This document shows, in pieces, positions 19,840-58,887 of a DNA stretch of 64,000 nucleotides; position 1 is the first letter of the stretch; each line of letters starts with the position of its first letter. The notes under the pieces are model-generated. The model had not been told where the DNA came from. It was given only the letters and a program-made list of their open reading frames with translations, and ran no database searches. The translations under genes were made by a program, and so were the position numbers. Source of the stretch: Escherichia coli (GTDB taxonomy: Bacteria > Pseudomonadota > Gammaproteobacteria > Enterobacterales > Enterobacteriaceae); assembly GCF_030013595.1 (NCBI RefSeq), contig NZ_CP122768.1; one strand, 5' to 3'.

Positions 19840-20417
19840 GCGCAGAACTCATGCGACTGCTGAGCAATATCATCCGCACCGGGATCATCTCTGAAGTTGA
19901 TGAGAAGTCCTGGCGCGTGCGCGTTCGCAGCGGCGAACTGGAAACAGGCTGGTTGCGCTGGAACACCACGCGCGCGGGAGCCTTCAATGTATGGCTGCCG
20001 CCATCACCAGGCGAACAGGTGGTAATTGCCTGCATTGGCGGCAACCCGGAAACCGCCATGATAATTGGCAGCCTGTGGAGTGATGCCAGTCCGGCCCCCG
20101 GCAAAAGCCTGAAAGAAATCGTGGTCAGCGCGCCGGATGGCGCGGCGTTCCGCTACGACGCAGACGCTGGCGCACTGAGCGCCAGCGGCATGAAAACAGC
20201 CACCCTGCAGGCATCCGTCAGCGTGACACTGGATACGCCCGTCGTGGAATGCACAAACCTTCTGAGAACAGCGACGCTTGACGTCACAAAAGGGGGAAAG
20301 ATGAGCGGCAATATCACGCACAGCGGCGGCGATTTCACCTCAAACGGCATCACAGTGCATACGCATAAGCACGGTGGCGTTAAAGGTGGCAGCGATTCGA
20401 CAGGAGGCCCGCAGTGA
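19836..20417 (+). CDS. V: Baseplate spike/assembly protein (P2 gpV)
   Basis: 193 aa with the conserved GG/HTH..HGG C-terminus of gpV-type spikes. Confidence 0.85.
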   Translation: MSAELMRLLSNIIRTGIISEVDEKSWRVRVRSGELETGWLRWNTTRAGAFNVWLPPSPGEQVVIACIGGNPETAMIIGSLWSDASPAPGKSLKEIVVSAPDGAAFRYDADAGALSASGMKTATLQASVSVTLDTPVVECTNLLRTATLDVTKGGKMSGNITHSGGDFTSNGITVHTHKHGGVKGGSDSTGGPQ

Positions 20418-25886: not shown

Positions 25887-28703
25887 TCAATCTTTATCGT
25901 AAAAACTGCCACGTCCGGCACGGGCGCGCCGTTCCATCTCTGCCCTGACCATTTCACCGACCAGTTTCGCCAGTTCGCGGGGATTCTGCGTAACAACGTT
26001 ATGCAGATGAACATGAATTTCACCGCCAAACCCGGAGGCAACAGGCTCCCGGTTACGGAAAGTTGCAGGAACTGATGCCACTGGAGAGCGTATGGCCTCC
26101 GCCACCGGGCGGGAGCTGGCCGCAACAACAGGGACCAGCGCCGGAGGCAGCGGAGCCGGGACCACGGGTGTGATATTAATTGCGGGGGCAGGCTTACTGA
26201 CCTGCGCAATCTTCCGCTCCTGCCACTCCCCACGAACAGCAAGTGCGCGGGGCAGGTTCTTAAAGACAATATCGCCGGGGCCAATGCGTTTTTTCGTCTC
26301 ATCAACCAGCTTACCTGTGTTATCAGCAATTTTGCTGAGTCTGCGTAGCGTACCGGTATTGCTGTCTGTGAGCGGTTTGTTGTCTTTGGGCTTATCACCT
26401 CCGGTGCCATTGCCATTTTCCACAGGCTTCGGCGGATTGATTTTCGCCAGGTCCCCCTGAAGCAAGGCAACCTTGTCCTGAAGAATGGCCGCACGCTGTG
26501 CGTCTTCGATTTTCTTGCGCGCCCTTTCCGCTTCATCCGGAAGCACACCGAGCTTTTCAAGTATCCACGCCAGCGTATCCAGCAACATTTTTGCAGGTGT
26601 CAGAACAAGTTGTAACGCACCGCCAAGAACGTTACCGAATATCTCGCCAGCACTGGTACATTTATCCAGCGTTTCCTTGCTGGACTCCATCGGTGACAGC
26701 AGCGATTTAAACCAGTTAAACACCTGGCTGATCCCGCTTCCGATTGCGTCAAAAACAGGACCAAACCGTTCAAAGGTTTCGCGCAACGGGGTCAGCCTTT
26801 CCATAATCCCGCTGAACACTCCGGCAAAAAATGCCCTGATGGGATCCCAGTATTTCCAGATAAGAACGGCAGCTCCGGCAAGCGCAGCCACAATAAGACC
26901 AACCGGACTGAACAACGCCCCGATAGCGCCTCCCAGTAAAGAAACAGAACCCGTCACCATTCCCCACAGCGCAGGCAACACCCTGACGACATTCATTGAC
27001 CGGGTCAGGATGTCAAAACCAAGACGCAGGGTGGCCAGCTTCCCGTAAAGCACCCCAATAACCAGCGACAACGAGCCAATCGTTGCAGTCATTGCCAGCA
27101 ACGCACCGCCTGCTATCAGTAGCTGGCGCGTCAGTACCGGATGGGCCTGCGCCAGCGAGGTGATTTTTTCAAGCACCCGCGTGAACCACTGCGTGACAAA
27201 ACGCAGCGGACCGTCAACCAGATCACTGATGCGAATACGAAGACCTTCCCATGCGCTGTCGAGATTTTTCAGGTCCCCATCAAGATTATCGGCCATTACT
27301 TTTGCAACGCGATCGGCCTCTCCCCTTGCCCCCTGCAATTCTCTGGTCAGTTTTTGCAGCTCTCCTGAACCAGCCGCCGCAACAAGCGTCTGCAAACCAA
27401 CGAACGCCTCTTCTCCGGCGATGTCCTTGAAGAAGGAGACCTGGTCCACCTGTCCGTATTTTTGTGTCGCCTTATAGAGATCAAGCAGCACATCCTCCAT
27501 CGGGCGCATTTTGCCTCTGGCGTCAGCAACTGACACCCCAAGCTCTTTCAGCGCATCAGCCGCAGCTTTTGGCGGTGATGCAAGGCGGGACAGACTTGCG
27601 CGCATGGCCGTACCAGCATCGCTTCCACGAAGACCATTATTGGCAAGCATCCCGGCCATGGCTGCCGCTTCTTCAAGACTGATACCAAGTTTTGCGGCAA
27701 CCGGACCGGTATACTTCATGGTTTCGCCCAGCGCGCGTAAATCAGTATTGGTCCGGGTGAATGCCGCTGTCAGCGTATCGCCAACCCGGTCCATTTGATC
27801 GGCTGTCAGGTTGAACTGTGTGAGGATATTGGAGCCTATATCAGCCGTCTCGCCGAGTTCGACGCCACCTGCCAGCGCCATATTAAGAACACCGGGCAAT
27901 GCGGCCTGAATGGCCTGCGGAGTAAAACCAGCCATTGCCAGAAAGCTCTGCCCACTGGCGGCATCACTCGCAGTAAACTGTGTTTCAGAGCCAAGTTTTA
28001 ACGCCTGCTCACGCAGCGCCTTAAACTGCGGGCTGTTTTTGTCGATTCGCGTCAGTGCCTGAACGCGGGACATCTCTTTGCCGAACCCGATCGCAGGCTG
28101 CAAAAAACGCCCGGCAGCATAGCCGCCCGCCGCTGCCGCACCAATTGCCAGCGCACCACCTGTTTTCAGTTTTCCCGCTGTTTCCTGCGCGCGCGAATAC
28201 CGCTCACGCGCCCGCGTTACACGCGCAAGCGCCTGCCGTTCGCGTTCAAGCTGGTTGTTGTACTGTTCGGTGCGTCTGATGGCCTGCTGGATGGTGTTAT
28301 CGCTGCCTGTCAGGGAAATGCCGTGGCGTTTCAGCTCTCCGCCAAGCTCCCGCATTTTCTGAATTTCCCGTGTGCGCGATTCATTCAGGCGTTCAAGCCG
28401 GGTGCTTAACTGCTGCATCAGCTTTTGTTGTTTTTCGCTGAGCACTGTACCCGTGCGTTGTAACTGATTAAGGGCGTTAAGCTGGCGTCGTGCTTTCAAT
28501 ATGCCAGCATCCGCTTTACTGACAGCGTCACGGGCGCGCTCAAATGAACGCGCCTGACGCTCGAGATTTTTGATCGCCCCCTGCGTTCGCTGGATGGAGT
28601 CACCAAGCTGCCCCATCAGGCGGCGGGCGTTTTCGGCAGGCCGGGTCAACCTGTCAACGGCGCTGAAAGCGACCCGGATATCAAGAGTCTTCATTATCTG
28701 CAT
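25887..28703 (-). CDS. T: Tail tape measure protein (P2 gpT)
   Basis: 938-aa protein, helical with a central hydrophobic glycine-rich segment; between E and U. Confidence 0.85.
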   Translation of the reverse strand: MQIMKTLDIRVAFSAVDRLTRPAENARRLMGQLGDSIQRTQGAIKNLERQARSFERARDAVSKADAGILKARRQLNALNQLQRTGTVLSEKQQKLMQQLSTRLERLNESRTREIQKMRELGGELKRHGISLTGSDNTIQQAIRRTEQYNNQLERERQALARVTRARERYSRAQETAGKLKTGGALAIGAAAAGGYAAGRFLQPAIGFGKEMSRVQALTRIDKNSPQFKALREQALKLGSETQFTASDAASGQSFLAMAGFTPQAIQAALPGVLNMALAGGVELGETADIGSNILTQFNLTADQMDRVGDTLTAAFTRTNTDLRALGETMKYTGPVAAKLGISLEEAAAMAGMLANNGLRGSDAGTAMRASLSRLASPPKAAADALKELGVSVADARGKMRPMEDVLLDLYKATQKYGQVDQVSFFKDIAGEEAFVGLQTLVAAAGSGELQKLTRELQGARGEADRVAKVMADNLDGDLKNLDSAWEGLRIRISDLVDGPLRFVTQWFTRVLEKITSLAQAHPVLTRQLLIAGGALLAMTATIGSLSLVIGVLYGKLATLRLGFDILTRSMNVVRVLPALWGMVTGSVSLLGGAIGALFSPVGLIVAALAGAAVLIWKYWDPIRAFFAGVFSGIMERLTPLRETFERFGPVFDAIGSGISQVFNWFKSLLSPMESSKETLDKCTSAGEIFGNVLGGALQLVLTPAKMLLDTLAWILEKLGVLPDEAERARKKIEDAQRAAILQDKVALLQGDLAKINPPKPVENGNGTGGDKPKDNKPLTDSNTGTLRRLSKIADNTGKLVDETKKRIGPGDIVFKNLPRALAVRGEWQERKIAQVSKPAPAINITPVVPAPLPPALVPVVAASSRPVAEAIRSPVASVPATFRNREPVASGFGGEIHVHLHNVVTQNPRELAKLVGEMVRAEMERRARAGRGSFYDKD

Positions 28704-30971: not shown

Positions 30972-31128
30972 AGCTTCAGCCCCTTGTATCCGTTAAATGA
31001 TTCGGCAACAATCATCACCCACCACGCGCGTAATCTCACCCCTGCGCCGTTCTCCCGACCCAGCGACAACAAAAAGCAGTAACCCCCTCCGCACGCACAT
31101 GCGACCATGCCGCACAGGGAGGGAACAG

Positions 31129-32232
31129 ATGACCGACACCACCATGCAATTGCTCAGTCAGGGCACAGACCCCGTGAAAATGCCGGATTTTGATATTCTT
31201 GCGGAGGGTAAAACGCTGTCAGGCGTGGCAGAGCGCCTGATGAGCCTGTCACTGACCGACAACCGGGGATTTGAGGCGGACCAGCTCACCATCACGCTGG
31301 ATGATGCGGATGGTCAGTTGCAGCTACCGCCACGGGGCGCGCGCCTGACGGTTCTCATTGGCTGGAAAGGAGAACCGCTGACAGAAAAAGGCACTTACAT
31401 TGTTGATGAAATCGCTCACGAAGGACCGCCGGACAGGCTGACAGTTTCAGCCAGAAGCGCAGATTTTCGGGATGAATTTAACGTTAAACGTGAGGTGTCC
31501 TGGCATGATGTGACCGTTGAGCGTGTGGTATCCGCCATCGCTCATCGGTATGGTCTGAAATCGCAAATCAGCGAAATGCTGATGGATATTGAAATCGACC
31601 ACGCCGACCAGACCGAAGAAAGCGACATGTCCTTCCTTACGCGCATGGCGGAAATGCTGGGCGCAATCACTACGGTAAAAAGCGGTAATCTGTTATTCAT
31701 TATGCCAGGCGGTGGCGTGAACGCGCAGGGCCAGCCGTTGCCCTCGTTCGCCATCACACGCAGCAGCGGCGATCGCCATCAGTTCCGCATTGCTGACCGA
31801 GAGGCGTATACGGGGGTACGCGCTTACTGGCTTGATCTTAATTACGGGAAAAAGAAAAAAGTCAGCGTGAAACGCCGTAAACCGCCAAAACCCAAAAAGG
31901 AGAAAAGCAGCAGCCGTGAAGGTGATTATATGGAAGGCGCGGAAGGCAATGTGTTTGTGTTACGCAAGACTTATCAGAACGAGCAGGCAGCAAGACGCGC
32001 AGCGGCGGCAAAGTGGCAGCAGCTACAACGCGGAGCCGCAGCGTTCTCCATCACATTGGCACGTGGACGCGCAGAACTCTACCCCGAAATGCATGGCACG
32101 GTAACAGGCTTTAAAAGCGAGATTGATAATCAGGACTGGATTATTGCGAAAGCCGAGCACACCATTGATAACAGCGGCTTTACCACGCAGCTTGAGCTTG
32201 AGGCAAAAATCCCGGAATGGATAGCAGAATGA
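31129..32232 (+). CDS. D: Tail protein D (P2 gpD, late control gene D family)
   Basis: Start at MTDTTMQLL with AGGGAGGG ribosome-binding site; size and position as P2 D. Confidence 0.8.
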   Translation: MTDTTMQLLSQGTDPVKMPDFDILAEGKTLSGVAERLMSLSLTDNRGFEADQLTITLDDADGQLQLPPRGARLTVLIGWKGEPLTEKGTYIVDEIAHEGPPDRLTVSARSADFRDEFNVKREVSWHDVTVERVVSAIAHRYGLKSQISEMLMDIEIDHADQTEESDMSFLTRMAEMLGAITTVKSGNLLFIMPGGGVNAQGQPLPSFAITRSSGDRHQFRIADREAYTGVRAYWLDLNYGKKKKVSVKRRKPPKPKKEKSSSREGDYMEGAEGNVFVLRKTYQNEQAARRAAAAKWQQLQRGAAAFSITLARGRAELYPEMHGTVTGFKSEIDNQDWIIAKAEHTIDNSGFTTQLELEAKIPEWIAE

Positions 32233-32396: not shown

Positions 32397-33032
32397 TTAG
32401 CGAGCTAATATATTCAAAGAATTTAACAATTGAGTGTCGAGTGTTTCAGTTGCAGGAATCGGTAATCCATTCGCAATGCGGTAATTTTTCACAGACAGCC
32501 TTGTGGATGGCCCCATTATGCCGTCAATATTTCCGTTATAAAATCCCCTGTCCAGCAATGCGAACTGAACTCGCATAATCAATCGCTTACGTTTCTCTGC
32601 ATCAGAAGCAAGCCCATTACTCGTACGGTTAACCTCTGAAGTTCCAACAGAACTCGTGTTAGTGGTTCTATTATTATCGTTAGAACGAAGTGCACGCACC
32701 GAGGAAGAGGACGATGAGGAACTTGCACCTGAACTTGAAGAACCAGATGAACTTGGTGAGCTGTATGTTTTTGGATAATAGGGGGTACTTCCACCATAGT
32801 ATCCACCACCTGATGAGGATCTATGAGAGCTATGGCTCCTATGAGAACTATGGCTTCGATGCCCTGCGATATAAAATGGGACTTCCGTGTTAAGTGGAGC
32901 TATCACTAAATCATGCTCATTAAGAGTCATACCAGGTAAATCACTCGCTCCTGTAGATGAATCGCTTGCCCATACAGAATTGTTGAGAGCCAAAAATCCC
33001 GGAAGTAGAGCAGCAAAATTAAACTTTTTCAT
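32397..33032 (-). CDS. hxsA: His-Xaa-Ser repeat protein HxsA: secreted precursor with Gly/Ser/Tyr-rich linker and C-terminal peptidoglycan-binding domain
   Basis: Signal peptide MKKFNFAALLPGFLALNNSVWA; HRSHSSHRSHSSHRS repeats; C-terminus LLDRGFYNGNIDGIMGPSTRLSVKNYRIANGLP resembles PG_binding_1; ATGA overlap with hxsC. Confidence 0.8.
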   Translation of the reverse strand: MKKFNFAALLPGFLALNNSVWASDSSTGASDLPGMTLNEHDLVIAPLNTEVPFYIAGHRSHSSHRSHSSHRSSSGGGYYGGSTPYYPKTYSSPSSSGSSSSGASSSSSSSSVRALRSNDNNRTTNTSSVGTSEVNRTSNGLASDAEKRKRLIMRVQFALLDRGFYNGNIDGIMGPSTRLSVKNYRIANGLPIPATETLDTQLLNSLNILAR

Positions 33033-34141
33033 AAAATTGGTCTCGGTGATTGATGAAAACGGCCTTTTGAGGAACTGAAATAGCCAGCACAGGAAGGCTT
33101 CTGAGTACATTCATCACATTCTTTTGGATAGTAATTTTTCCAATCAGAGATCGACTGAACAGCAAGCTCCCTAGCCCTTTCAGGAAGATAACACAAAGGA
33201 TAATTAAAAATTGTCAGAGGTATGCCTGACCTGTATGCAGCGTCTATGGCAGAGATTATTTTCTCACTATAACTACTGTGATCAATGAAGATGGTGGACC
33301 AGTTTTTTCGTGCCCAACCGATAGGCTCCAACCCCATAAGGGAAATCTGATTGATGTTGGAGAACACACGGCCAGCGAATTCTACGATATCATCCAATTC
33401 GGTATAGTTAGCCAGTGTAGGAATAACTCTAAGTTCGATATTAATCCCCAAGTTTCCTGCATTGATTAACCCTTTAACCGTTTCATTAAATGCGCCATCA
33501 CTCCCTACCAGATGATCATGCACAAGTGGTCTTGATGAGTAGAGCGGGATACCAAAGGTGATTTTGATCTTTTTGCTTCGCTTTGCCATTTCCTGTGTAA
33601 AGTTGGTATCAGCAAATTTGCGTCCGTTTGTTAAAACATGTAAAGCAGTATCTGGTGAATTCTCGATGATAAAATCAATGAAGTGAAGGAAGTCATCCCC
33701 ATATAGCAAAGGTTCACCACCGCTGACCCCAACAACTCCGTTCAAGCCAAATGAAGCTATAGCAAGAGCTGATTGGGTAAGTAGCCAGTCATCATTTATT
33801 TTCTTTGGTGGCTGCGAACAAAACAGACACAAGTTATTGCAGCGTTCCGTAACTAAGACAGTATTATGATTGGCTTTGCGTGACAGAATAACGCGTATCA
33901 TATTGCCATTGTTGATTATCCCAATATCTCCATCTTCAATTGACTCAAATAATTCAGTGCTAATAACAGAGAAATCAAAGCATGGTGGAATGGCATCATT
34001 ATTGCCTTCAGCAACTACTAGCAAATTGGGCAAAAAGAATAAAGGGTTCACTGGTTTTTGTTTGCATAACCGATAGAACCCCGTGGGCACGTTCTCTGTA
34101 GAAGCAAAATGAAAGATATCGTTCCTGATAACCTCAGACAT
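33029..34141 (-). CDS. hxsC: Radical SAM maturase (HxsC-type assignment; B/C assignment tentative)
   Basis: CNNLCLFC (Cx3Cx2C) radical-SAM cluster motif; C-terminal CDEC...C cluster; overlaps both neighbours. Confidence 0.8.
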   Translation of the reverse strand: MSEVIRNDIFHFASTENVPTGFYRLCKQKPVNPLFFLPNLLVVAEGNNDAIPPCFDFSVISTELFESIEDGDIGIINNGNMIRVILSRKANHNTVLVTERCNNLCLFCSQPPKKINDDWLLTQSALAIASFGLNGVVGVSGGEPLLYGDDFLHFIDFIIENSPDTALHVLTNGRKFADTNFTQEMAKRSKKIKITFGIPLYSSRPLVHDHLVGSDGAFNETVKGLINAGNLGINIELRVIPTLANYTELDDIVEFAGRVFSNINQISLMGLEPIGWARKNWSTIFIDHSSYSEKIISAIDAAYRSGIPLTIFNYPLCYLPERARELAVQSISDWKNYYPKECDECTQKPSCAGYFSSSKGRFHQSPRPIL

Positions 34142-35522
34142 ATGCCCATCCTTTTAGCATCTCAGCCTTCGAACCACCCTCTGAGATGCAGTTCATCAGA
34201 TACCTGAACATCCCCTTGTGATATTGACAAAACGTTGAACGACTCCTATCACCGACAGGCTCACCCTGTACACTTATGTTCTGGCATGGATCTGAACCAC
34301 AAAATGGTTGATATGCACATGTATCACAACCTGGCAGAGCAAAATTGAACGATGAACTCAATACTGCGTTATAGTAAGGACTATCAGAAAATGATAGCGT
34401 CTTAACTTCACCCGCACTGAACTCCGTTTCAGGATTCACCTTCTGCAACATACGGCTCTCATCGCTACCATATACTCGACCGTCATAATTGAAAAGAATA
34501 CTGTTAAGCACGACTCCACTTGGAGACTTTAAATCCGCATAACCACTAAAACCGGGATTGAAGATCCTTTTCAGATGAATGGAGGCCGAATGTTCCACAA
34601 CCCTTATCCCTTCATTATTAATCTTAAGGATTTCATCTATCAACGAGGCATAGAAGCTGAAGTATTCGTCCATAGAAAAGGTGAAAGAAGCTTTTTGTGC
34701 AAACCCATAGGGACTAACAGGTCGGATAAACATGTCCTTGAGACCAAGAGACAAGTGAGCCTGAACAATCGATTCAGGACGTCTGATAAGCTCTTTAGTA
34801 ACTGTAGTAACCGTTGCAACGCGGCCAGCACCTAAAGAGTGTTTGATAGCCTCTACCCCTGACACTGTTCTACTGTACGCAAGCCCACGACCAAGAATTC
34901 GATTACTGTTGTGAACAACTTCCTCACCATCAAGCGACACAGAGAACGTTATGTTCCGGTCTCTCGACCATTCAATCATATCCTCATTCAAGACAGACAG
35001 ACTTGATGCCACCACCATCTCAAAATTGGTTCTTCCCAGCGTTTCAGCACATTGATCATAGATGCTCTGAATTAAATCAAACCGCAAGAGAGGCTCCCCA
35101 CCCTGTATCTCTATTTTGTAAGGTGGCGTTGATAGTTTTTTAATAGCCGAAATAATATCGGGGATGAGCTCAGGATTTAGGTCGTAACCTGAGGCATTAA
35201 CAGAAGCTCTACTAACCTGGCAATACTTGCATGTATGGTCACAACGTAATGTGGGTACAATCATGAAAATTGGCCTGACAGCCAGTTCATTCATCAATCG
35301 TTTTGCAAAAGCAGAACTTAAAGCATAGGGAGTTATAGCAGATGAGCTTTCACTGGTTATGAAAAGCTTACTTTCTAGCACGTTTGATTGCTCCGAACTA
35401 ATTCGCTCATCAGAAAGATCAATAAGGTCTTGCTCACCAATGAAATGATGAAAACCTGCAAGGTTGCTTATAAACACCTGTCCATTAGGCAATCTGTCAA
35501 AATTAAATGGCATCAATTCCAT
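34134..35522 (-). CDS. hxsB: Radical SAM/SPASM maturase (HxsB-type assignment; B/C assignment tentative)
   Basis: CDHTCKYC (Cx3Cx2C) motif plus C-terminal Cys-rich SPASM-like region (CDTCAYQPFCGSDPC...C). Confidence 0.8.
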   Translation of the reverse strand: MELMPFNFDRLPNGQVFISNLAGFHHFIGEQDLIDLSDERISSEQSNVLESKLFITSESSSAITPYALSSAFAKRLMNELAVRPIFMIVPTLRCDHTCKYCQVSRASVNASGYDLNPELIPDIISAIKKLSTPPYKIEIQGGEPLLRFDLIQSIYDQCAETLGRTNFEMVVASSLSVLNEDMIEWSRDRNITFSVSLDGEEVVHNSNRILGRGLAYSRTVSGVEAIKHSLGAGRVATVTTVTKELIRRPESIVQAHLSLGLKDMFIRPVSPYGFAQKASFTFSMDEYFSFYASLIDEILKINNEGIRVVEHSASIHLKRIFNPGFSGYADLKSPSGVVLNSILFNYDGRVYGSDESRMLQKVNPETEFSAGEVKTLSFSDSPYYNAVLSSSFNFALPGCDTCAYQPFCGSDPCQNISVQGEPVGDRSRSTFCQYHKGMFRYLMNCISEGGSKAEMLKGWAYV

Positions 35523-46163: not shown

Positions 46164-46421
46164 ATGCGTACAACCCAACAATTCAGCATTACATTAACTA
46201 ACGAAATGGCTGACATGGTGCGCGCCCGTGTGGCTTCCGGTGCCTATGCTTCAGAAAGCGAGGTCATTCGTGAAGGGCTTCGCGCACTGAATGAGCGCGA
46301 TAAAGCAATCGAAGCGTGGTTAACGCATTCAGCCGCCCCCTCTCTTGATTCTATCCGCGAAACCCCAAACAACGGACGCTCCATTTCACAGGTTCGCGCC
46401 GCGATTCGATCCGGGAAGTAA
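46164..46421 (+). CDS. parD: ParD-family antitoxin (ribbon-helix-helix)
   Basis: GTGAGGT ribosome-binding site; ITLTNEMADMVRARVASGAYASESEVIREGLRAL is a typical ParD/CopG fold; paired with downstream toxin. Confidence 0.75.
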   Translation: MRTTQQFSITLTNEMADMVRARVASGAYASESEVIREGLRALNERDKAIEAWLTHSAAPSLDSIRETPNNGRSISQVRAAIRSGK

Positions 46422-46426
46422 TCTGC

Positions 46427-46726
46427 ATGACATATGAAGTCATCATTACTCCTGAGGCCGAACAACAAATAATCAACCTGCACAGGTATATAACGGAGAA
46501 AGCAGGGAACGTCATTGCTGACAATTATGCCAATGCGCTTCTTGATTATCTTGATGGGTTTTCTACATTCCCGCATCGGGGCAATAAACGCGATGATATT
46601 CGCCAGGGGATGCGGGTAACTCATTTCCGCCACAGAACGATTATTGCTTTTGCCGTTGATAGCAGAAAAGTCTTTATTGTCGGTATCTATCATGGTGGGC
46701 AAAGTTATGAAACCGATTTCTTATAA
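46427..46726 (+). CDS. parE: ParE/RelE-family toxin
   Basis: 99 aa, 5 bp downstream of the antitoxin; RelE/ParE-like motifs. Confidence 0.75.
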   Translation: MTYEVIITPEAEQQIINLHRYITEKAGNVIADNYANALLDYLDGFSTFPHRGNKRDDIRQGMRVTHFRHRTIIAFAVDSRKVFIVGIYHGGQSYETDFL

Positions 46727-46930: not shown

Positions 46931-47275
46931 TCATCGTAAAATATCCTCCACGCTTATCAGTCCGTTCCGCTCCAGATAACTCATCGCCTTATCCGGTAAT
47001 TTGCAGTCTGGCTTCGCTTTCCTCAGTTGCCAGGTTAACTGCTTTACCAGCATGGTTAACTCATCGACCAGACGCTGATATCCCACTGGTTTGTATTCAT
47101 GCAATTTACCGGCTGGCTCTGCTGCCAGCGATACCAGTGCGATTTCCAGAACAGCAATATCCATCTTATATGTGCGGATGATGTCATGGTCGATTGTGCC
47201 CGGTATGCACAGTCTCTGTGCTTCAATAGTCTCCTCTGCGTGAGCTATTAACTGCTCTCTGGTAAAAGTCGTCAT
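46931..47275 (-). CDS. Hypothetical phage protein
   Basis: 114-aa ORF overlapping the HNH gene stop. Confidence 0.4.
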
Positions 47276-47637
47276 GCCGTAGCCCCTTCTTGATATTTTT
47301 CAAACCAGAACACAACTGGGTCAGATTTCATTTCAACCAATCCCATACGAACCAGCGCTTTGCCTTTCCCGGACGCAAGGAATTCACGACGACCATCACT
47401 GATAATTCGCCGATAATCTTCCAGACTACTGCAATGCTTGTGCAGATTGCATGGGTGGCATGCCGGAACCATGTTGGATATATCGTCACGTTCCTGGTGA
47501 AGCATATTTCCATCAAAACGAATGACCGGTTTTACATGGTCTGCATGCCACTTTTCGCCAAGTTCGCAGCCGCAATAAGCACAGCGACCGCCGAACTTCA
47601 TGCGCAGCTCTGCACGTTGTTTTTTCGTCAGTGCCAT
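47272..47637 (-). CDS. HNH endonuclease
   Basis: CAYCGC...HADHVKP...CHPCN motif. Confidence 0.75.
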
Positions 47638-51758: not shown

Positions 51759-52055
51759 TCAGGTATGATCAAATGAGGATTTGTTACTGTCATTTAGTTG
51801 CTTCACTGACATATTCTGCGAACAACATGCCGAACGTCGTAAATATGACCAGTCAATATCAGGACGAAGTTCTTCGCACAGAACCTCACCTCTTGTTGCA
51901 CGTTCAATTGCTGGACATCTCTCGGCAGGCAATTGACGTACCCCTTTGATCCATTGATTTACGCTTGGAGGTGATACACCTAAAAGCCTAGCCATTGCTG
52001 ATTGCCCACCGACAACAGCACAAGCTTGCTTGAATGAATAGTTCTCTTTTTTCAT
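51759..52055 (-). CDS. ydaS: Cro-like HTH protein, YdaS-like
   Basis: MKKENYSFKQACAVVGGQSAMARLLGVSPPSVNQW matches my memory of Rac YdaS; divergent from the repressor. Confidence 0.6.
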   Translation of the reverse strand: MKKENYSFKQACAVVGGQSAMARLLGVSPPSVNQWIKGVRQLPAERCPAIERATRGEVLCEELRPDIDWSYLRRSACCSQNMSVKQLNDSNKSSFDHT

Positions 52056-52084
52056 CGAATGAACTCCAAAAACACACAGAAATA

Positions 52085-52151
52085 TTAGGCGACGCCTAAC
52101 ACAAATGTCAATAGGCTGTGCCTAATGCGATAAAGGTAGGAATTGCCTAAT
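52085..52151. promoter_or_regulatory. Operator region: three TTAGGC-n3-GCCTAA-type palindromes between the divergent ydaS-like and repressor genes
   Basis: TTAGGCGACGCCTAA (perfect), ATAGGCTGTGCCTAAT, TAGGAATTGCCTAAT. Confidence 0.6.
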
Positions 52152-52178
52152 ACAATGAGCATAGGAGAATATTAAGCA

Positions 52179-52655
52179 ATGCTTAGTGGTAAAGACTTAG
52201 GCCGAGCGATAGAGCAGGCCATTAACAAAAAAATCGCATCGGGATCCGTCAAATCAAAGGCGGAGGTCGCACGCCACTTCAAAGTCCAACCACCATCAAT
52301 TTATGACTGGATTAAGAAAGGCTCTATAAGTAAAGATAAACTTCCAGAATTATGGCGTTTCTTTTCTGATGTTGTTGGTCCAGAGCATTGGGGGCTTAAC
52401 GAATACCCCATACCAACCCCCACCAATTCAGATACAAAAAGTGAACTTTTAGATATAAACAACCTTTATCAAGCAGCCTCTGATGAAATAAGAGCGATTG
52501 TAGCTTTCCTGTTATCTGGAAATGCTACAGAACCAGATTGGGTTGACCACGATGTTCGCGCCTACATAGCAGCGATGGAAATGAAAGTGGGTAAGTATCT
52601 GAAAGCTCTAGAATCTGAACGGAAAAGCCAGAACATCACAAAAACTGGAACTTAA
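52179..52655 (+). CDS. Prophage repressor (XRE-type HTH, RacR-like position)
   Basis: 158 aa; N-terminal helix-turn-helix; flanked on both sides by the same palindromic operator motif. Confidence 0.6.
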   Translation: MLSGKDLGRAIEQAINKKIASGSVKSKAEVARHFKVQPPSIYDWIKKGSISKDKLPELWRFFSDVVGPEHWGLNEYPIPTPTNSDTKSELLDINNLYQAASDEIRAIVAFLLSGNATEPDWVDHDVRAYIAAMEMKVGKYLKALESERKSQNITKTGT

Positions 52656-52970
52656 ACTTATATGGTCTGACGGAAAACTCCTGGATTCCGTTATTTAACC
52701 CCCCATCACTTTCTGCTGTCGCCATCACCTATTAGGTTACGATCAAAACATTAGGCATAGCCTATTGACAATCAATTAGGCATTACCTATAGTTCCAGCA
52801 TACCACCCACCCCGCCCCACAGAACGCAGGGCAATACTTCGAGTTACCAGGCAGTGGTCAGGGGTTAAGTAGCCAGCCCGAGGCGTAAGAACATGACGGC
52901 AGGGTTCAACTTTAACTATGCAGCAGGTTTTTGTTCCGCCACCCCGGCGTTAAGGGGAAATGAGGTCAGC

Positions 52971-53126: not shown

Positions 53127-55109
53127 TATGGATTTCGACACAATCATGGAAAAGGCTTACGAAGAATACTTCGAAGGCCTTGCCGAAGGCGAAGAAGCTC
53201 TCAGCTTCAGTGAGTTTAAACAGGCGCTTTCCAGCTCGGCAAAATCTAACGGCTGATAAGCGAAGCAGCACCGCGAGGAATCAGTATGCAGAAACGAGAA
53301 CCCGTCATCATCGCGCCAGACTATACCGATGATGAACTTTATGAGTGGATGCGCCAGAAAATTAATGCAGCGCAGGATCTGAAATGGGCCAATGAAGCCA
53401 GGGCTAAGCAGGCTGAAAATCTGTCCGCTCTGGAGCAGGATATCACCAGGCTGGAAAAAGCAGCGGCATTAAGCATTGCCAGAATGATTTCATACCCGCG
53501 TTAATAGCTAACCAACGAAGCTAAGGTTGGTAATTAAGGAGTTCTCCACGGGTCAGGTGGAGTGCGTGCGCCGGACACGGGTGAGCATCCGGTACGTTCT
53601 TTAAAAATCTGGATAGTCCCAACTTATTTAAACGGTTAATTATCTTGAGTTCATCCAGAACTTATTATTGCAAGCGAGGCAAAAAGTACGAAAATGAGCA
53701 TCAAAGCGCATTATTTCCATTGGCTGAAGTACAGATATTACCTTTTTTCCAAAACATTGTGGGCAAAGATACACAGTTATCTCAGTATCGCCTATAAATT
53801 GCTTCTTGGAATATACAAGGGTTCCAGAATCAAGCTTGTTAAGCTTGTAACCTTCCGCCTGTCGCTGAAAATCTTCTGTCTCTGCAATTTTTGCTTTGAG
53901 ATGCATTATCTCTTCATCACGAAAGCGGATCGCATCGCAAAGAGAGAAGCATTCCGCCTGAAGCGTGATTAGTTTGTTCTGAAGTTCAATAGTTGCGGCT
54001 TTAACTTCTGCATCCGTTTTTGCGTCATTAATAACCTTAGCGAGACCAGCTGTCTCCTTTATCGCAGCCATAGCCGCTGACAGTTCTGCTATCACGTTGA
54101 GTACTCTTCTCGTTGTTGGGGATATCCGGATTATACAAATTTCTTGTTGTTGGGGAATAACAGGAACCACCTCGCCTGACGTGGTTAAAAGCAGGCACAC
54201 AACGCGAAAGCGTACGGCGAGGTAGCTGGTTCATAGATAGCCTGTCGTTAAATTTTCGTCGACCGTGCACTTCCGGTTGTGGCAATCCGCGAAATGGCGC
54301 GGCGGTAAGTATGGCTGGGTTATCCTTACCCCATTAGTGGCACCGGGTTGTCAGGTTGACCATACGCTTAAGTGACAACCCCGCTGCAACAACCCATGTT
54401 GATTACCTTTTGGCGGGTATCCGTTTTTTGTTTTCCCTTGTGATACCCGCCCTTTTTAAAGTGAATTTTGTGATGCGGTGAATGCGGCTCAGCGCACGCG
54501 GAACAGTTAAAAAGGCCAGTTGACTTCCGTATTGGTTCTTATGGGTGGGTTCTCTGTATCCGGCGTTAATTATTAACTGGTTAACGTCACCTGGAGGCAC
54601 CAGGCACCGCATCACAAAATTCATTGTTGAGGATGCGATAATGGAAACGTTATTACCAAACGTCAATACGTCTGAAGGTTGTTTTGAAATTGGTGTCAGA
54701 ATCAGTAACCCTGTATTTACTGAAGATGCCATTAATAAGAGAAAACACGAACGGGAGCTATTAAATCAAATATGCATTGTTTCAATGCTGGCCCGTTTAC
54801 GCCTGATGCAAAAAGGACGATGACAATGAATACAGTATTTGCACTCGTTCTGACGGTTTTTCTTAATACAGGCGAGCCAGTCGATCTTGTTATTGGTATA
54901 CATGACTCAATGAAAGAATGCATGGCTGCCGCAGCGGAACAGAAAATTCCCGGCAACTGTTATCCGGTTGATAAAGTTATTCGCATGGACAATAACGAAA
55001 TCCCGGCAGGACTTAAAACAGCACCGTAATTAATATCCGGTTTCATTTTTATATGCCAGCAATGGCAGGGATTTGTTCACCCTTAAATCTGTAATGAGGT
55101 TAAAACAAA

Positions 55110-57581
55110 ATGAGTAAAGTCTTTATTTGCGCCGCCATTCCGGACGAACAGGCAATAAAGGAAGAAGGTGCAGTCGCTGTAGCCACTGCCATTGAAGCCG
55201 GCGACGAACGCCGCGCCCGAGCCAAATTTACCTGGCAATTCCTGGAGCAATATCCGGCTGCTCAGGACTGCGCTTATAAATTTCTTGTTTGCGAGGATAA
55301 ACCCGGCATGCCCCGCCCTGCCATCGACTCCTGGGATACCGAATATATGCAGGAAAACTGCTGGGATGAGGAATCCGCTTCCTTTATTCCGGTCGAACCA
55401 GAATCCGATCCGATGAACGTCAATTTTGACAAGCTGTCCCCTGAAGTACAGAACGCGGTCCTGGTTAAGTTCGACACATGTGAAAACATCACCGTTGATA
55501 TGGTTATTAGCGCACAGGAATTGTTGCAGGAAGACATGGCAACATTCGACGGACATATCGTTGAAGCGTTGATGAAAATGCCAGAAGTTAACGCCATGTA
55601 TCCGGAGCTTAAGTTGCACGCCATTGGGTGGGTTAAGCATAAATGTATTCCTGGTGCTAAATGGCCCGAAATTCAGGCAGAGATGCGCATCTGGAAAAAA
55701 CGTCGCGAAGGTGAACGCAAGGAAACCGGAAAATACACGTCTGTTGTTGATCTCGCCCGCGCCAGAGCCAATCAACAGTACACTGACAATTCAACAGGAA
55801 AAATCAGCCCGGTCATTGCTGCCACTCATCGCGAATACAAGCAGACATGGAAAACACTGGATGACGAACTGGCCTACGCTCTCTGGCCTGGTGATGTGGA
55901 TGCCGGAAACATTGACGGCAGCATCCATCGCTGGGCAAAAAATGAAGTTATCGACAACGACCGCGAAGACTGGAAGCGTATCTCGGCATCAATGCGCAAA
56001 CAGCCTGATGCCCTTCGCTACGACCGCCAGACTATTTTTGGCCTTGTCCGTGAACGTCCGATCGACATTCACAAAGACCCTGTGGCACTGAACAAATACA
56101 TTACTGAATACCTGACTACAAAGGGCGTGTTTGAAGATGAAGGAAGAAATCAGAGCGCAACTGATACTCTCTCGTCGCCAGTACCAGAAACTGATGCAGT
56201 GGAAACGGCAATTCCGGACAACGAAAAAACCGAATGCAAAGTGGAAGTCGAACCATCTGTAGAGCGTGAGGGGCCGTTCTACTTCCTCTTCACCGACAAG
56301 GATGGCGAAAAATATGGTCGCGCAAACAAACTTTCTGGTCTGAATAAGGCGCTGACTGCAGGGGCTACTGAAATCACGAAAGAAGAATATTTTGCCCGTA
56401 AAAACGGTACATACTCAGGTTCACAACAAAATACTGGTGCATCTGACACGACCGCACAACCAGAGCCGGTAAAAGTTACCGCTGACGAAGTAAACAAAAT
56501 TATGCAGGCAGCCAATATCAGCCAGCCTGACGCCGATAAGTTGCTTGCTGTATCACGTGGTGAATTTGTTGCAGGGATTAGCGACCCGAATGATCCGAAA
56601 TGGGTGAAGGGGATTGAAACCCGCGATTCAGTGAATCAGAACCAGCAAGAAACGGAACAGAACGACCAGAAAGCGGAACAAAACAGCCCAAATGCGTTAC
56701 AAAACGAGCCAGAAACGAAACAACCTGAGCCAGTAGCGCAACAGGAAGCGGAAAAAGTCTGCACCGCCTGCGGTCAGACCGGCGGCGGCAACTGCCCTGA
56801 TTGTGGTGCGGTGATGGGCGACGCAACATACCAGGAAACATTCGATGACAAGAACCAGGTTGAAGTTCAGGAAGACGATTCGGAGAAAATGGAAGGCGCT
56901 GAACATCCACACAAAGAGAATGCTGGCAGCGCTCAGGATCACGCCAGCGATAGTGAAACTGGCGAGACGGCAGATCCCTTAATTACGGTGAACGGTCATC
57001 ACGTTATCACATCCACCAGCAGGACGTGTGACCATCTAATGATCGACCTTGAAACCATGGGAAAAAATCCTGATGCCCCGATTATCTCAATAGGTGCAAT
57101 ATTTTTCGATCCGCAAACCGGAGATATGGGACCGGAATTTAGTAAGACTATCGATCTGGAAACTGCTGGCGGAGTCATTGATCGGGACACCATTAAATGG
57201 TGGCTTAAGCAATCACGCGAAGCGCAATCTGCCATTATGACCGATGAAATCCCGTTAGATGATGCACTGTTACAATTGCGGGAATTTATCGACGAAAACT
57301 CCGGTGAATTTTTTGTTCAGGTCTGGGGAAATGGAGCCAACTTCGACAACACGATTTTGCGCCGTTCATACGAACGGCAGGGGATCCCCTGCCCGTGGCG
57401 TTACTACAACGATCGCGATGTACGCACAATCGTTGAGCTGGGGAAAGCCATAGACTTCGATGCCAGAACGGCTATTCCATTCGAAGGTGAGCGCCATAAT
57501 GCACTTGATGACGCCCGTTACCAGGCAAAATACGTTTCAGCAATCTGGCAAAAACTGATCCCGAATCCGGTTGATTTTTAA
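55110..57581 (+). CDS. Large exonuclease, RecE-like middle region with C-terminal DEDD-type 3'-5' exonuclease-like motifs
   Basis: 823 aa; segment DKLLAVSRGEFVAGISDPNDPKWVKGIETRDSVNQNQ resembles RecE as I remember it; C-terminus has DLET, NGANFD and HNALDDA motifs. Confidence 0.55.
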   Translation: MSKVFICAAIPDEQAIKEEGAVAVATAIEAGDERRARAKFTWQFLEQYPAAQDCAYKFLVCEDKPGMPRPAIDSWDTEYMQENCWDEESASFIPVEPESDPMNVNFDKLSPEVQNAVLVKFDTCENITVDMVISAQELLQEDMATFDGHIVEALMKMPEVNAMYPELKLHAIGWVKHKCIPGAKWPEIQAEMRIWKKRREGERKETGKYTSVVDLARARANQQYTDNSTGKISPVIAATHREYKQTWKTLDDELAYALWPGDVDAGNIDGSIHRWAKNEVIDNDREDWKRISASMRKQPDALRYDRQTIFGLVRERPIDIHKDPVALNKYITEYLTTKGVFEDEGRNQSATDTLSSPVPETDAVETAIPDNEKTECKVEVEPSVEREGPFYFLFTDKDGEKYGRANKLSGLNKALTAGATEITKEEYFARKNGTYSGSQQNTGASDTTAQPEPVKVTADEVNKIMQAANISQPDADKLLAVSRGEFVAGISDPNDPKWVKGIETRDSVNQNQQETEQNDQKAEQNSPNALQNEPETKQPEPVAQQEAEKVCTACGQTGGGNCPDCGAVMGDATYQETFDDKNQVEVQEDDSEKMEGAEHPHKENAGSAQDHASDSETGETADPLITVNGHHVITSTSRTCDHLMIDLETMGKNPDAPIISIGAIFFDPQTGDMGPEFSKTIDLETAGGVIDRDTIKWWLKQSREAQSAIMTDEIPLDDALLQLREFIDENSGEFFVQVWGNGANFDNTILRRSYERQGIPCPWRYYNDRDVRTIVELGKAIDFDARTAIPFEGERHNALDDARYQAKYVSAIWQKLIPNPVDF

Positions 57582-57647: not shown

Positions 57648-57899
57648 ATGTACGAATTAACTCTATCGCCAGCAGAGATTCAAGAGATCACGAAATACGA
57701 GCGATACACAAAACAGCAACACCAGTTAAGGCTGCACGGTATCCCATTTGTAATCGGTCCTAAAAACGAACCAATAGTTCTTCGCAGGGATATTCCACAC
57801 GGACTGACTACGATGCCAAAAGCACCTGAACTGGTTTCCGCTGAACCCGATTTTGAGGCGCTGAACAATGGGAAGACCAAGAAAAAACAAAAAAGATAA
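57648..57899 (+). CDS. xis: Excisionase-like protein
   Basis: 83-aa basic protein immediately upstream of and overlapping int. Confidence 0.55.
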   Translation: MYELTLSPAEIQEITKYERYTKQQHQLRLHGIPFVIGPKNEPIVLRRDIPHGLTTMPKAPELVSAEPDFEALNNGKTKKKQKR

Positions 57900-58887
57900 T
57901 GCACTACCACCGCGTGTTAGATCGAATGGTTACAGTTACGTATGGAAACCCGAAGGAAGCACAAGAACTATAGGGCTCGGAAGAGTGCGGGAAACCAGCG
58001 TAGCTAAAGTCTGGCAAAATTATGAGCTGGAAAAAGCAAAACTCCACAACATAATGACAGTAGCTAAATTATGGCACATGTTTATGGACTCCCCTGCATT
58101 TACAGAACTGGCCCCCCGAACCCAAAAAGATTATCGGCAACATCAAAGGGCATTGTTGGCAGTATTCGGAAAAGTGCTTGCTGATAATGTAAAAATTGAA
58201 CAGGTAAGAATTTTCATGGATAAGCGAGGACTTGAGAGCAAGACCCAAGCAAACCATGAACTGGCAAGTCTGAGCCGTGTATACGGATGGGGATATGAGC
58301 GTGGGTATGTGAAAAATAATCCATGCAAAGGAGTCAGAAAATTCACACTTAAAGCCCGTACTGTTTACATCACCGATGAACAGTATGCTGCAATATATGC
58401 GGAAGCAATTCCACAGTTACGTATTGCAATGGAGATATCCTATCTTTGTGCGGCAAGGCTCGGTGATGTACTCGAGCTGAAATGGCAGGATATTATGGAG
58501 AAAGGGATTTACATTGAGCAAAACAAGACCGGCACTAAACAAATCAAGGAATGGTCTCCGCGATTACGTACGGCGATCCAGTTAGCCCGAAATGTATCTT
58601 CCGGCACATGCGAGTATGTGATCAACACAACCAAAGGCGGGAAGGTAATAGCCAAGACGCTGAACAACTGGTGGAATCAGGCTAAACGTGCAGCCGAGCA
58701 AAAAGCCGGCGTTCCGTTTGGGTGCAACTTCCATGACATAAAAGCCAAAGGGATTTCAGATTACGAAGGCAGCAGTCGCGACAAACAAATTTTCAGTGGA
58801 CACAAAACAGAAAATCAGGTGTTGATTTACGATCGTAAAACCAAAATAACACCAACACTGGATTTGCCGCTTGTGGTCAGTAAGTAG
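57868..58887 (+). CDS. int: Tyrosine integrase (lambdoid)
   Basis: 339 aa with ARLGD and H..K...Y-type C-terminal catalytic region; adjacent to the tRNA att fragment. Confidence 0.8.
   Translation: MGRPRKNKKDNALPPRVRSNGYSYVWKPEGSTRTIGLGRVRETSVAKVWQNYELEKAKLHNIMTVAKLWHMFMDSPAFTELAPRTQKDYRQHQRALLAVFGKVLADNVKIEQVRIFMDKRGLESKTQANHELASLSRVYGWGYERGYVKNNPCKGVRKFTLKARTVYITDEQYAAIYAEAIPQLRIAMEISYLCAARLGDVLELKWQDIMEKGIYIEQNKTGTKQIKEWSPRLRTAIQLARNVSSGTCEYVINTTKGGKVIAKTLNNWWNQAKRAAEQKAGVPFGCNFHDIKAKGISDYEGSSRDKQIFSGHKTENQVLIYDRKTKITPTLDLPLVVSK

Follow-up and report, generated by a model that had tools for sequence, protein, structure and literature searches.

In Escherichia coli K-12 the Rac prophage encodes RecE, a 5'->3' nuclease in which a large N-terminal region carrying the Pfam Exonuc_VIII domain (PF06630, amino acids (aa) 2-178) is joined through an acidic linker to a C-terminal PD-(D/E)XK domain (DUF3799, aa 615-850), and whose gene lies late in the early-left operon, upstream of xis-int, and is overlapped by recT. 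In Rac, recE is silent until sbcA mutations activate it, and the N-terminal part of RecE boosts linear-linear recombineering. The Qin prophage of K-12 contains, in the order dicB-ydfD-ydfE, the pseudogene ydfE (b1577), which an IS2E insertion interrupts past codon ~255 and which no longer has its linker and exonuclease head, and bacteriophage T4 encodes DexA, a DNA exonuclease that is a stand-alone 227-aa protein of a virulent phage. Here we analyse a gene at positions 55110-57581 (plus strand) of a 64,000-nucleotide stretch of E. coli contig NZ_CP122768.1 (hereafter the window), which the initial annotation described as a large RecE-like exonuclease without an adjacent RecT-like annealase. 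The gene is an intact ydfE, and its product combines a YdfE-type N-terminal module and an acidic linker shared with RecE with a DEDDh exonuclease head that replaces the PD-(D/E)XK nuclease of RecE; it probably acts independently of an annealase.

The open reading frame (ORF) comprises 823 codons, begins at the ATG at 55110, 10 nt downstream of a GAGG Shine-Dalgarno sequence, and terminates with the stop codon at 57579-57581. In a 99.7%-identical genome the Prokaryotic Genome Annotation Pipeline (PGAP) calls a gene with identical coordinates and the product name "3'-5' exonuclease", so the 823-aa protein of the initial annotation is a real ORF. The exact sequence is already public in 114 contigs, with the UniRef name 'Exonuclease from phage origin', and the 90%-identity cluster to which it belongs has 23,183 member sequences. 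Membership of the YdfE family is indicated by homology of the N-terminal module: up to the IS2E insertion in the K-12 Qin pseudogene, the two sequences share 93% identity (aa 1-255), and PHROG 2082 (phrog_2082) matches the protein over its full length (1-823). Judged by this comparison, the gene is the intact orthologue of Qin ydfE, complete where the K-12 copy is truncated. In a homologue set assembled by exhaustively searching 1.84 billion representative proteins and then applying Pfam, the families YdfE_N (PF27430) and YdfE_C (PF27432) are recorded in precomputed hits on the homologues P0129, P0138 and P0151; our local Pfam scan returned PF27430 and PF27432 neither for the 823-aa protein nor for the homologues bearing them in the precomputed hits. 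The sequence, family and domains are thus all already represented in RefSeq, PHROGs and Pfam, and the gene is known as an object; we found no functional study of ydfE or of the Rv2179c-like prophage family in the searchable literature.

The C-terminal part of the protein (aa 642-823; 57033-57578, plus strand) is predicted by Pfam, AlphaFold2 (AF2) and Foldseek to be a DEDDh (DnaQ-like) 3'->5' exonuclease domain of the Rv2179c-like, T4-DexA-like type. The Rv2179c-like profile (PF16473), which is the sole Pfam domain found in the 823-aa protein besides a weak DZR match, aligns over its full length with aa 642-813 (E 1.6e-67, 227.1 bits against a cut-off of 27), and the DEDDh set is complete: D646, E648, D746, H796 and D801 occupy invariant columns of the homologue alignment and align with D7, E9, D119, H186 and D191 of DexA. 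The DEDD-like motifs that the initial annotation had noticed at the C-terminus are therefore those of a full catalytic set. In the AF2 model, built from a 71-sequence alignment, the domain (aa 640-820) reaches a predicted local distance difference test score (pLDDT) of ~95. A Foldseek search with the modelled domain returned T4 DexA first (8KEN/8KEL, E 3e-9), followed by RNase T, Orn/REXO2, 3'hExo and Cap18, and the best 50 matches were all DEDDh enzymes, in agreement with an RNase H-like DEDD fold. DexA (8KEL/8KEN, E 1.5e-6) was the only sequence relative found by phmmer against the PDB. By all features open to sequence comparison or modelling, the protein belongs to the DEDDh Rv2179c-like/DexA-like family.

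DexA is the closest solved relative of the ydfE head by both sequence and fold (TM ~0.65 on the target) and shares its five DEDDh residues, but the identity is only 21-26%, DexA contains extra loops, and the residues proposed for its tetramerisation and for recognition of 5-hydroxymethylcytosine (5hmC) are not kept as a set in the ydfE head (S87 is replaced by Pro, W152 by Tyr and D169 by Ala), which, unlike DexA, is fused to a 640-aa scaffold. Stand-alone Rv2179c-like DEDDh exonucleases, for example those of Salmonella phage F1055, Providencia phage PSTCR8lys and E. coli phage SKA5, are 50-61% identical to the ydfE head. The stand-alone phage enzymes are 180-190 aa long and lack the YdfE/RecE scaffold, and their N-terminus (MNHLMIDLETMG) lines up with ...CDHLMIDLETMG of the 823-aa protein; in temperate enterobacterial phages the stand-alone DEDDh genes are located directly upstream of xis-int, as is ydfE.

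The relationship to RecE is confined to the non-catalytic part of the protein. BLASTP against K-12 RecE aligned aa 262-626 (55893-56987, plus strand) with RecE 278-592 (E 3e-60, 39% identity overall); the identity, judged by eye on the alignment, increases markedly from about aa 470, in a stretch that includes the sequence DPNDPKW and a CxxC-x7-CxxC ribbon. At the DNA level the similarity is 77% over 56534-56983, ending at RecE codon ~591, and the middle segment resembling RecE that was originally reported is thus confirmed. Neither Exonuc_VIII nor DUF3799 was found by Pfam in the 823-aa protein, the N-terminus of which is YdfE-type, and tblastn with RecE 600-866 (the nuclease occupying ~606-866) gave nothing significant in the window. 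The NCBIfam equivalog for exodeoxyribonuclease VIII (NF007259) scores 279.8 bits against a cut-off of 1269 and covers only aa 238-626. Homology to the RecE middle and linker is present, but since the defining features of the RecE family, namely the PD-(D/E)XK domain, Exonuc_VIII, an equivalog score above the cut-off and an adjacent recT, were tested and are all lacking, the ydfE product is, on these comparisons, neither a member of the RecE/exonuclease VIII family nor a RecE-type resection enzyme. The description "RecE-like exonuclease" accordingly holds for the middle and linker, which are shared with RecE, and fails for both RecE Pfam domains, which are absent, and for the catalytic head, which is different. 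The two proteins are alike in design, with a large N-terminal region, an acidic linker and a C-terminal nuclease, and in their slot late in the early-left operon upstream of xis-int; in contrast to the 5'->3' polarity of RecE, the polarity predicted for ydfE is the opposite (3'->5'). Many public annotations of genes of this family nevertheless read 'exodeoxyribonuclease VIII' or 'RecE', a label that suggests, wrongly, a recombination exonuclease of 5'->3' polarity whose RecT has gone missing; "YdfE-family DEDDh 3'-5' exonucleases" would be the better name.

N-terminal to the head, the protein is composed of several parts of differing predicted order. The first 100 residues (55110-55409, plus strand) are modelled at pLDDT 40-58 and align with the N-terminus of phage ZF40 gp07. 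They are followed by an all-helical region (aa 101-345; 55410-56144, plus strand), corresponding to YdfE_N/YdfE_C and confidently predicted by AF2 as two helical sub-domains (aa 101-205 and 241-345), and by a mini-domain consisting of a beta-hairpin and a helix (aa 387-432; 56268-56405, plus strand; pLDDT ~90), whose motif GPFYFLF...GRANKL...EEYFARK is kept in the consensus of the homologue alignment. An acidic, mostly disordered linker (aa 433-641; 56406-57032, plus strand), with pLDDT <50 over most of 438-640, then leads to the head. Within this part of the protein, aa ~455-625 correspond to RecE 455-591. The linker contains the zinc-ribbon motif CxxC-x7-CxxC (C551, C554, C562 and C565; 56760-56804, plus strand), which corresponds to C517... 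in RecE, weakly matches the Pfam DZR family and reaches only pLDDT ~59 in the model. The ribbon and the DPNDPKW sequence were considered as family-defining features and rejected, as both are confined to close relatives and absent from more distant homologues; because of this absence the ribbon is not regarded as essential to the family.

No annealase accompanies the gene. The order of genes from the repressor to the prophage end is racR, DUF1391, ydfB, ydfC, a minus-strand ORF, a dicF-like stretch, dicB, a DUF1482/ydfD-like gene, the exonuclease gene, DUF4224 and int, which is the order of a Qin-type left operon. The interval between racR and the exonuclease holds only small ORFs, as the initial annotation had stated, and xis starts 67 nt past the exonuclease stop codon, leaving no room for an annealase gene between them. 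Pfam and PHROGs searches of all ORFs from racR to int, and of the hypothetical ORFs of the replication and nin regions, revealed no annealase family; tblastn with RecT, Red-beta, lambda Exo and Gam across the 64 kb gave nothing better than E 0.05, and with RacC, RalR and Kil only chance matches across the same 64-kb window. No single-strand annealing protein (SSAP) domain was found in the protein and no SSAP ORF in the locus, and the PGAP annotation contains no recombinase anywhere in the prophage. The search for recT at 53.2-55.1 kb suggested by the initial annotation, extended to the whole window, thus yielded no remnant, and a frameshifted or degraded recT, in that interval or elsewhere, is ruled out by the 64-kb tblastn together with the Pfam and PHROGs searches.

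The same arrangement is observed in related loci. Among 80 loci retrieved from IMG/VR with the ydfE linker, all 80 encode the DEDDh head and none encodes RecT; no match to RecT, Red-beta, lambda Exo, Gam or the RecE nuclease domain was obtained in any of them. In the control, the loci retrieved from the same database with the RecE nuclease have RecT in 80/80 cases, RecT always beginning 4 nt ahead of the recE end. Because the loci surveyed are closely related, the counts do not represent independent events, which weakens what they can contribute to the annealase-independent reading, although the contrast is complete nonetheless. The annealase-free order dicB-ydfD-exo-xis-int is also found in the deposited phage genome mEp460, and an order without annealase occurs in E. 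coli prophages that have different repressors and integrases and, at ompW, a different attachment site, while the upstream neighbours vary among the IMG/VR loci, being either dicB/ydfD or kilR. The absence of an annealase is therefore the norm for the family, and RecT is not expected at a ydfE locus because it travels with the PD-(D/E)XK head and not with the shared scaffold. Of the two suggestions made initially, that the module is organised differently from Rac is borne out by the recurrence of this order in related loci, whereas that it may be incomplete is contradicted by the lack of a recT remnant, by purifying selection in every region of the gene (see below) and by the same annealase-free order in relatives.

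Comparison of the homologues revealed that either type of N-terminal module can be paired with either type of C-terminal nuclease head, independently of one another, so that four combinations exist: Exonuc_VIII with PD-(D/E)XK, represented by RecE; Exonuc_VIII with DEDDh, represented by P0124 and eight others; YdfE_N with DEDDh, represented by the 823-aa protein of 55110-57581; and YdfE_N with PD-(D/E)XK, represented by P0138. All four are present among close E. coli relatives too. For example, in one such locus (L011) the stretch that runs from kilR to recE codon ~591 shares 94.9% identity with Rac, whereas the part corresponding to the window from 56556 onward, ending shortly past the stop codon, shares 94.2% identity with the window; the two similarities overlap by ~430 bp within the shared linker. 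The reciprocal chimera (L105) has dicB and ydfD followed by a gene encoding YdfE_N (88%), the YdfE middle (91%), the linker (71%) and the RecE nuclease (100%), and then RecT (100%). Since the two halves of L011 overlap in the linker and the reciprocal chimera exists, the heads are evidently exchanged by homologous recombination inside this conserved segment. P0138 is followed by an overlapping ORF of the RecT family (Pfam RecT 2e-36), and the P0124 locus has a Rac-like kilR-ydaE context with xis-int directly after P0124. The exchanged unit is thus the PD-(D/E)XK domain plus recT on the RecE side and the DEDDh domain alone on the ydfE side. These head swaps indicate that the N-terminal and linker part of RecE is an independent, swappable module whose function can be tested by domain swaps, a result that should be useful to specialists in recombineering and phage recombination, although it does not amount to a new kind of system.

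More diverse relatives of the scaffold carry other heads. Six distant YdfE_N/YdfE_C-scaffold proteins lack a Pfam-recognised head, and in five of these (P0136, P0145, P0151, P0176 and P0214), as well as in gp07 of the temperate Pectobacterium phage ZF40 (L179:3642-5807), the C-terminal ~260 aa look Rad52-like. Weak matches to Rad52_Rad22 occur at the same profile positions in 5/5 relatives (best E 0.0023, below the gathering score), and a profile built with stand-alone phage homologues has human RAD52 as its top nine PDB matches (E 0.034-0.23, RAD52 residues 54-162). Depositors have labelled these stand-alone homologues 'RAD52-like annealing protein' or 'putative single strand-annealing protein', and the genes that encode them adjoin a Gp157/Gam-like gene or a 'putative nuclease'. 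It is probable that the C-termini of the P0136-type proteins and ZF40 gp07 form a Rad52-like SSAP domain and that these proteins have no nuclease domain. A divergent PD-(D/E)XK nuclease was considered for the C-termini of P0129 and the P0136-type proteins, and was rejected because hhalign against RecE-type domains gave a probability of 0.1%. ZF40 gp07 resembles the 823-aa protein in its homologous N-terminal scaffold (aa 3-335 at 24% identity, E 4e-16), and both it and the P0136-type proteins occupy the slot between the repressor and xis-int; they differ in the probable SSAP head in place of a nuclease, and in the next gene, which encodes a 171-aa ORF after ZF40 gp07 and Sipho_Gp157 after the P0151-type proteins. 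The scaffold-annealase fusions (ZF40 gp07 and the P0136 type) are annotated as 'putative exonuclease', and such a fusion seems not to have been described. The sixth relative, P0129 (L012:5001-7109), is a 702-aa YdfE_N/YdfE_C protein with xis-int directly after its gene, whose C-terminal ~250 aa matched no Pfam family, no PDB sequence and neither type of nuclease; it would carry a fourth kind of head. If the Rad52 assignment is right, the scaffold is a platform for recombination modules that accepts a nuclease of either polarity or an annealase.

The gene is maintained under selection. In 74 of the 86 surveyed loci the ORF has 805-830 aa, any cut by contig ends being counted among the shorter ORFs, and the ratio of non-synonymous to synonymous substitutions (dN/dS; Nei-Gojobori), calculated for 64 unique full-length alleles, is 0.13 for aa 1-100, 0.26 for aa 101-345, 0.26 for aa 346-440, 0.31 for the linker and 0.17 for the DEDDh domain. 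All regions are therefore under purifying selection, including the segments that AF2 does not fold; the most constrained region, with the lowest dN/dS, is aa 1-100, despite its low AF2 confidence. This pattern of substitution indicates that ydfE is functional and not decayed. Among 5426 complete E. coli genomes, 3531 contain the gene at a query coverage of at least 80%, at up to 10 places per genome; it is hence among the commonest prophage genes of E. coli, one under purifying selection for which a functional study was not found.

We infer from the family assignment that the ydfE head would remove nucleotides from free 3' ends, most likely of DNA, a substrate that is favoured because DexA, the closest relative to have been characterised, acts as an exonuclease on DNA and because the other heads of the scaffold belong to DNA recombination. 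The N-terminal module and flexible linker may act as a tether or targeting part. Gene order, a promoter-like site at 52765-52793 and the analogy with recE in Rac suggest that the protein would be expressed only after derepression, as the product of the last early-left gene before xis-int. Tentatively, the enzyme may have an accessory role in lytic growth, in which it would trim or destroy 3'-ended DNA independently of an annealase, and not a role in single-strand-annealing recombination, a possibility we favour because a 3'->5' exonuclease cannot make the 3' tails used by annealases and RecA. In addition to the relatedness of the surveyed loci, several points weigh against this interpretation. 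Polarity, substrate (DNA or RNA) and physiological role are all inferred from sequence and modelling, and PF16473 takes its name from an exoribonuclease. Recombination depends on 3' tails, which an enzyme of 3'->5' polarity would destroy, and the shared scaffold alone confers no recombination role. The argument for early-left expression is built on gene order and one consensus promoter match only, and a fold search with the N-terminal helical module (aa 101-345) gave no known relative, which makes "tether or targeting" a guess.

It is possible, though unlikely, that the enzyme serves instead as a counter-defence nuclease that clears 3'-ended single-stranded DNA, small DNAs such as retron multicopy single-stranded DNA (msDNA), or other immunity triggers and guides during the lytic cycle, by which means the phage would evade sensing by its host. 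There is a precedent in the degradation of retron msDNA by RecE, which its authors describe as also being an anti-restriction gene (bioRxiv 10.1101/2020.06.22.160242); moreover, in temperate phages unrelated to this one, stand-alone DEDDh genes are found in an accessory position immediately upstream of xis-int, and the gene has no obligatory partner, its upstream neighbours being dicB/ydfD in some loci and kilR in others. This evidence is circumstantial, however, as no defence system is known to be blocked by the family, and the other heads of the scaffold (PD-(D/E)XK with RecT, and the Rad52-like SSAP) point to recombination.

A lysogen-protecting nuclease of the 'HREX' kind, directed against the modified DNA of superinfecting phages, is decidedly unlikely. 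The E. coli DexA homologue EcD (HAK9828821.1) has been reported to cleave 5hmC-containing DNA and to protect against T4 (PMC12153337), and this antiphage activity, the position of T4 DexA as the closest solved relative of the ydfE head, and the persistence of an extremely prevalent gene, intact and under selection even in defective prophages such as that of the window, would all be compatible with such a function. EcD nevertheless belongs to a different branch: its primer-deduced termini (MIDTET.../...TIPETY) are absent from the top 120 homologues of the ydfE head, and the residues proposed to recognise 5hmC are not kept, W152 of DexA corresponding to Tyr766 and D169 to Ala. We rejected EcD as the same domain as the ydfE head on the basis of these mismatched termini and non-conserved recognition residues. 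In addition, PADLOC gives only a weak generic DEDDh match, and a gene deep in the early-left operon beside xis-int should, by analogy with recE in Rac, be repressed in lysogens.

It is highly unlikely that the enzyme is an exoribonuclease involved in 3' trimming or turnover of transcripts, whether those of the phage or of the host, or in Orn-like degradation of nanoRNA. The naming of PF16473 for the 3'-5' exoribonuclease Rv2179c, the presence of RNase T, Orn/REXO2 and 3'hExo among the structural neighbours, and the production of the DicF small RNA by the equivalent operon in Qin all lend some weight to this view, but in both sequence and structure the DNA exonuclease DexA is the best match, and the other heads to which the scaffold is fused belong to DNA recombination. 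Finally, a decayed or incomplete RecET module, that is, a recE whose recT has been lost or frameshifted and which is itself becoming a pseudogene, might be suspected from the RecE homology in mid-protein, the many 'exodeoxyribonuclease VIII' annotations and the lack of head and tail genes from the lambdoid element in the window, but it is scarcely credible given the absence, both from the 64 kb and from 80 related loci, of any remnant of RecT, Red-beta, Exo or Gam, the proximity of xis (67 nt past the stop codon), the dN/dS values of 0.13-0.31, the intact state of most loci, the same order in mEp460, and a C-terminal domain that is a different, complete enzyme and not a broken PD-(D/E)XK nuclease.

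A broader and rather doubtful proposal may be added to the annealase-independent trimming favoured above. The N-terminal two-thirds of RecE, like its YdfE counterpart, could be a portable scaffold and disordered tether that temperate enterobacterial phages combine freely with varied heads acting on DNA ends and that delivers each of them to one common target, either DNA ends or a host protein found there. The DEDDh version would then represent a distinct, annealase-free form of DNA-end handling, with a role in anti-recombination, counter-defence or competition between phages, and would not be a redundant nuclease.

The window is chromosomal, and the genes surrounding ydfE belong to the early, regulatory and lysis part (~36.9-58.9 kb) of a lambdoid prophage that ends by yccA and is 99.7-100% identical to NZ_CM149870.1. 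The six features listed next, from racR to the integrase gene, are on the plus strand. The racR-type repressor gene (52179-52655), with which the early-left region begins, is assigned by PGAP in the near-identical genome and by Pfam helix-turn-helix matches. The best match to a sigma-70-like promoter, TTGACA-17-TATAGT (11/12 positions; 52765-52793), lies downstream of it and is a candidate early-left promoter for the operon whose last genes are the exonuclease gene, xis and int. The gene for the cell-division inhibitor DicB (54641-54823) is called by PGAP and Pfam (DicB E 7e-37), and the DUF1482/ydfD-like gene directly upstream of the exonuclease (54826-55029) by PGAP and Pfam/PHROGs. Directly downstream are the DUF4224 excisionase-like gene (57648-57899) and the tyrosine integrase gene (57868-58887), both identified by PGAP and Pfam, the latter at the end of the prophage that adjoins yccA. 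The immunity region (51759-52655) is Rac-type (racR, ydaS, ydaT) and is joined to the Qin-type left operon (ydfA/B/C, dicB, ydfD, ydfE), an instance of lambdoid mosaicism.

Two features between ydfB/C and dicB also deserve mention. The minus-strand ORF at 53640-54200, of 151-186 aa, matches phrog_1244, has no significant Pfam match and is located at the position of a Rac-type sieB (compare L011 3227-3715); a similar ORF is found in a further locus (L008), and it could be a moron or a superinfection-exclusion gene. At the dicF position (~54390-54480, between ydfC and dicB) only the 3' terminator matches K-12 DicF, the 5' part including the seed having diverged, and Rfam at the gathering threshold detected no DicF or other RNA family in 51.5-59.5 kb.

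The identity of the lambdoid element to NZ_CM149870.1 reaches 100% only to the right of 36907, in the lysis, Q, nin and replication regions. Head and tail genes, which NZ_CM149870.1 has to the left of this point, are missing here, so that the prophage looks truncated or defective, with the exonuclease ORF intact. ARAGORN found no tRNA-Ser anywhere in the 64 kb, although in related strains the lambdoid prophage has serT at its left end. The nin-like region contains a ParD/ParE toxin-antitoxin pair and an HNH endonuclease gene (46164-46726 and 47272-47637), and further to the left are genes for a RusA resolvase and a DNA methyltransferase.

The left part of the window is occupied by a P2-family prophage (864-32232) with a replication endonuclease and P2-type capsid, portal and terminase genes, which also encodes a tail fibre (22190-24781), a tape measure protein (25887-28703, minus strand) and gpD (30997-32232); it is absent at the same place in the near-identical NZ_CM149870.1 and NZ_CP080233.1. 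ARAGORN predicted a putative 90-nt tRNA-Leu(CAG) at 20123-20212 (minus strand) inside this P2-like region. Right after P2 gpD is an island of low GC content (0.41-0.43) at 32397-35522 (minus strand) with three ORFs, which encode a 237-aa protein with a weak peptidoglycan-binding match and a pair of radical-SAM proteins (370 and 462 aa). The island resembles cargo at a variable site of P2, and as such is a candidate for an accessory or defence function.

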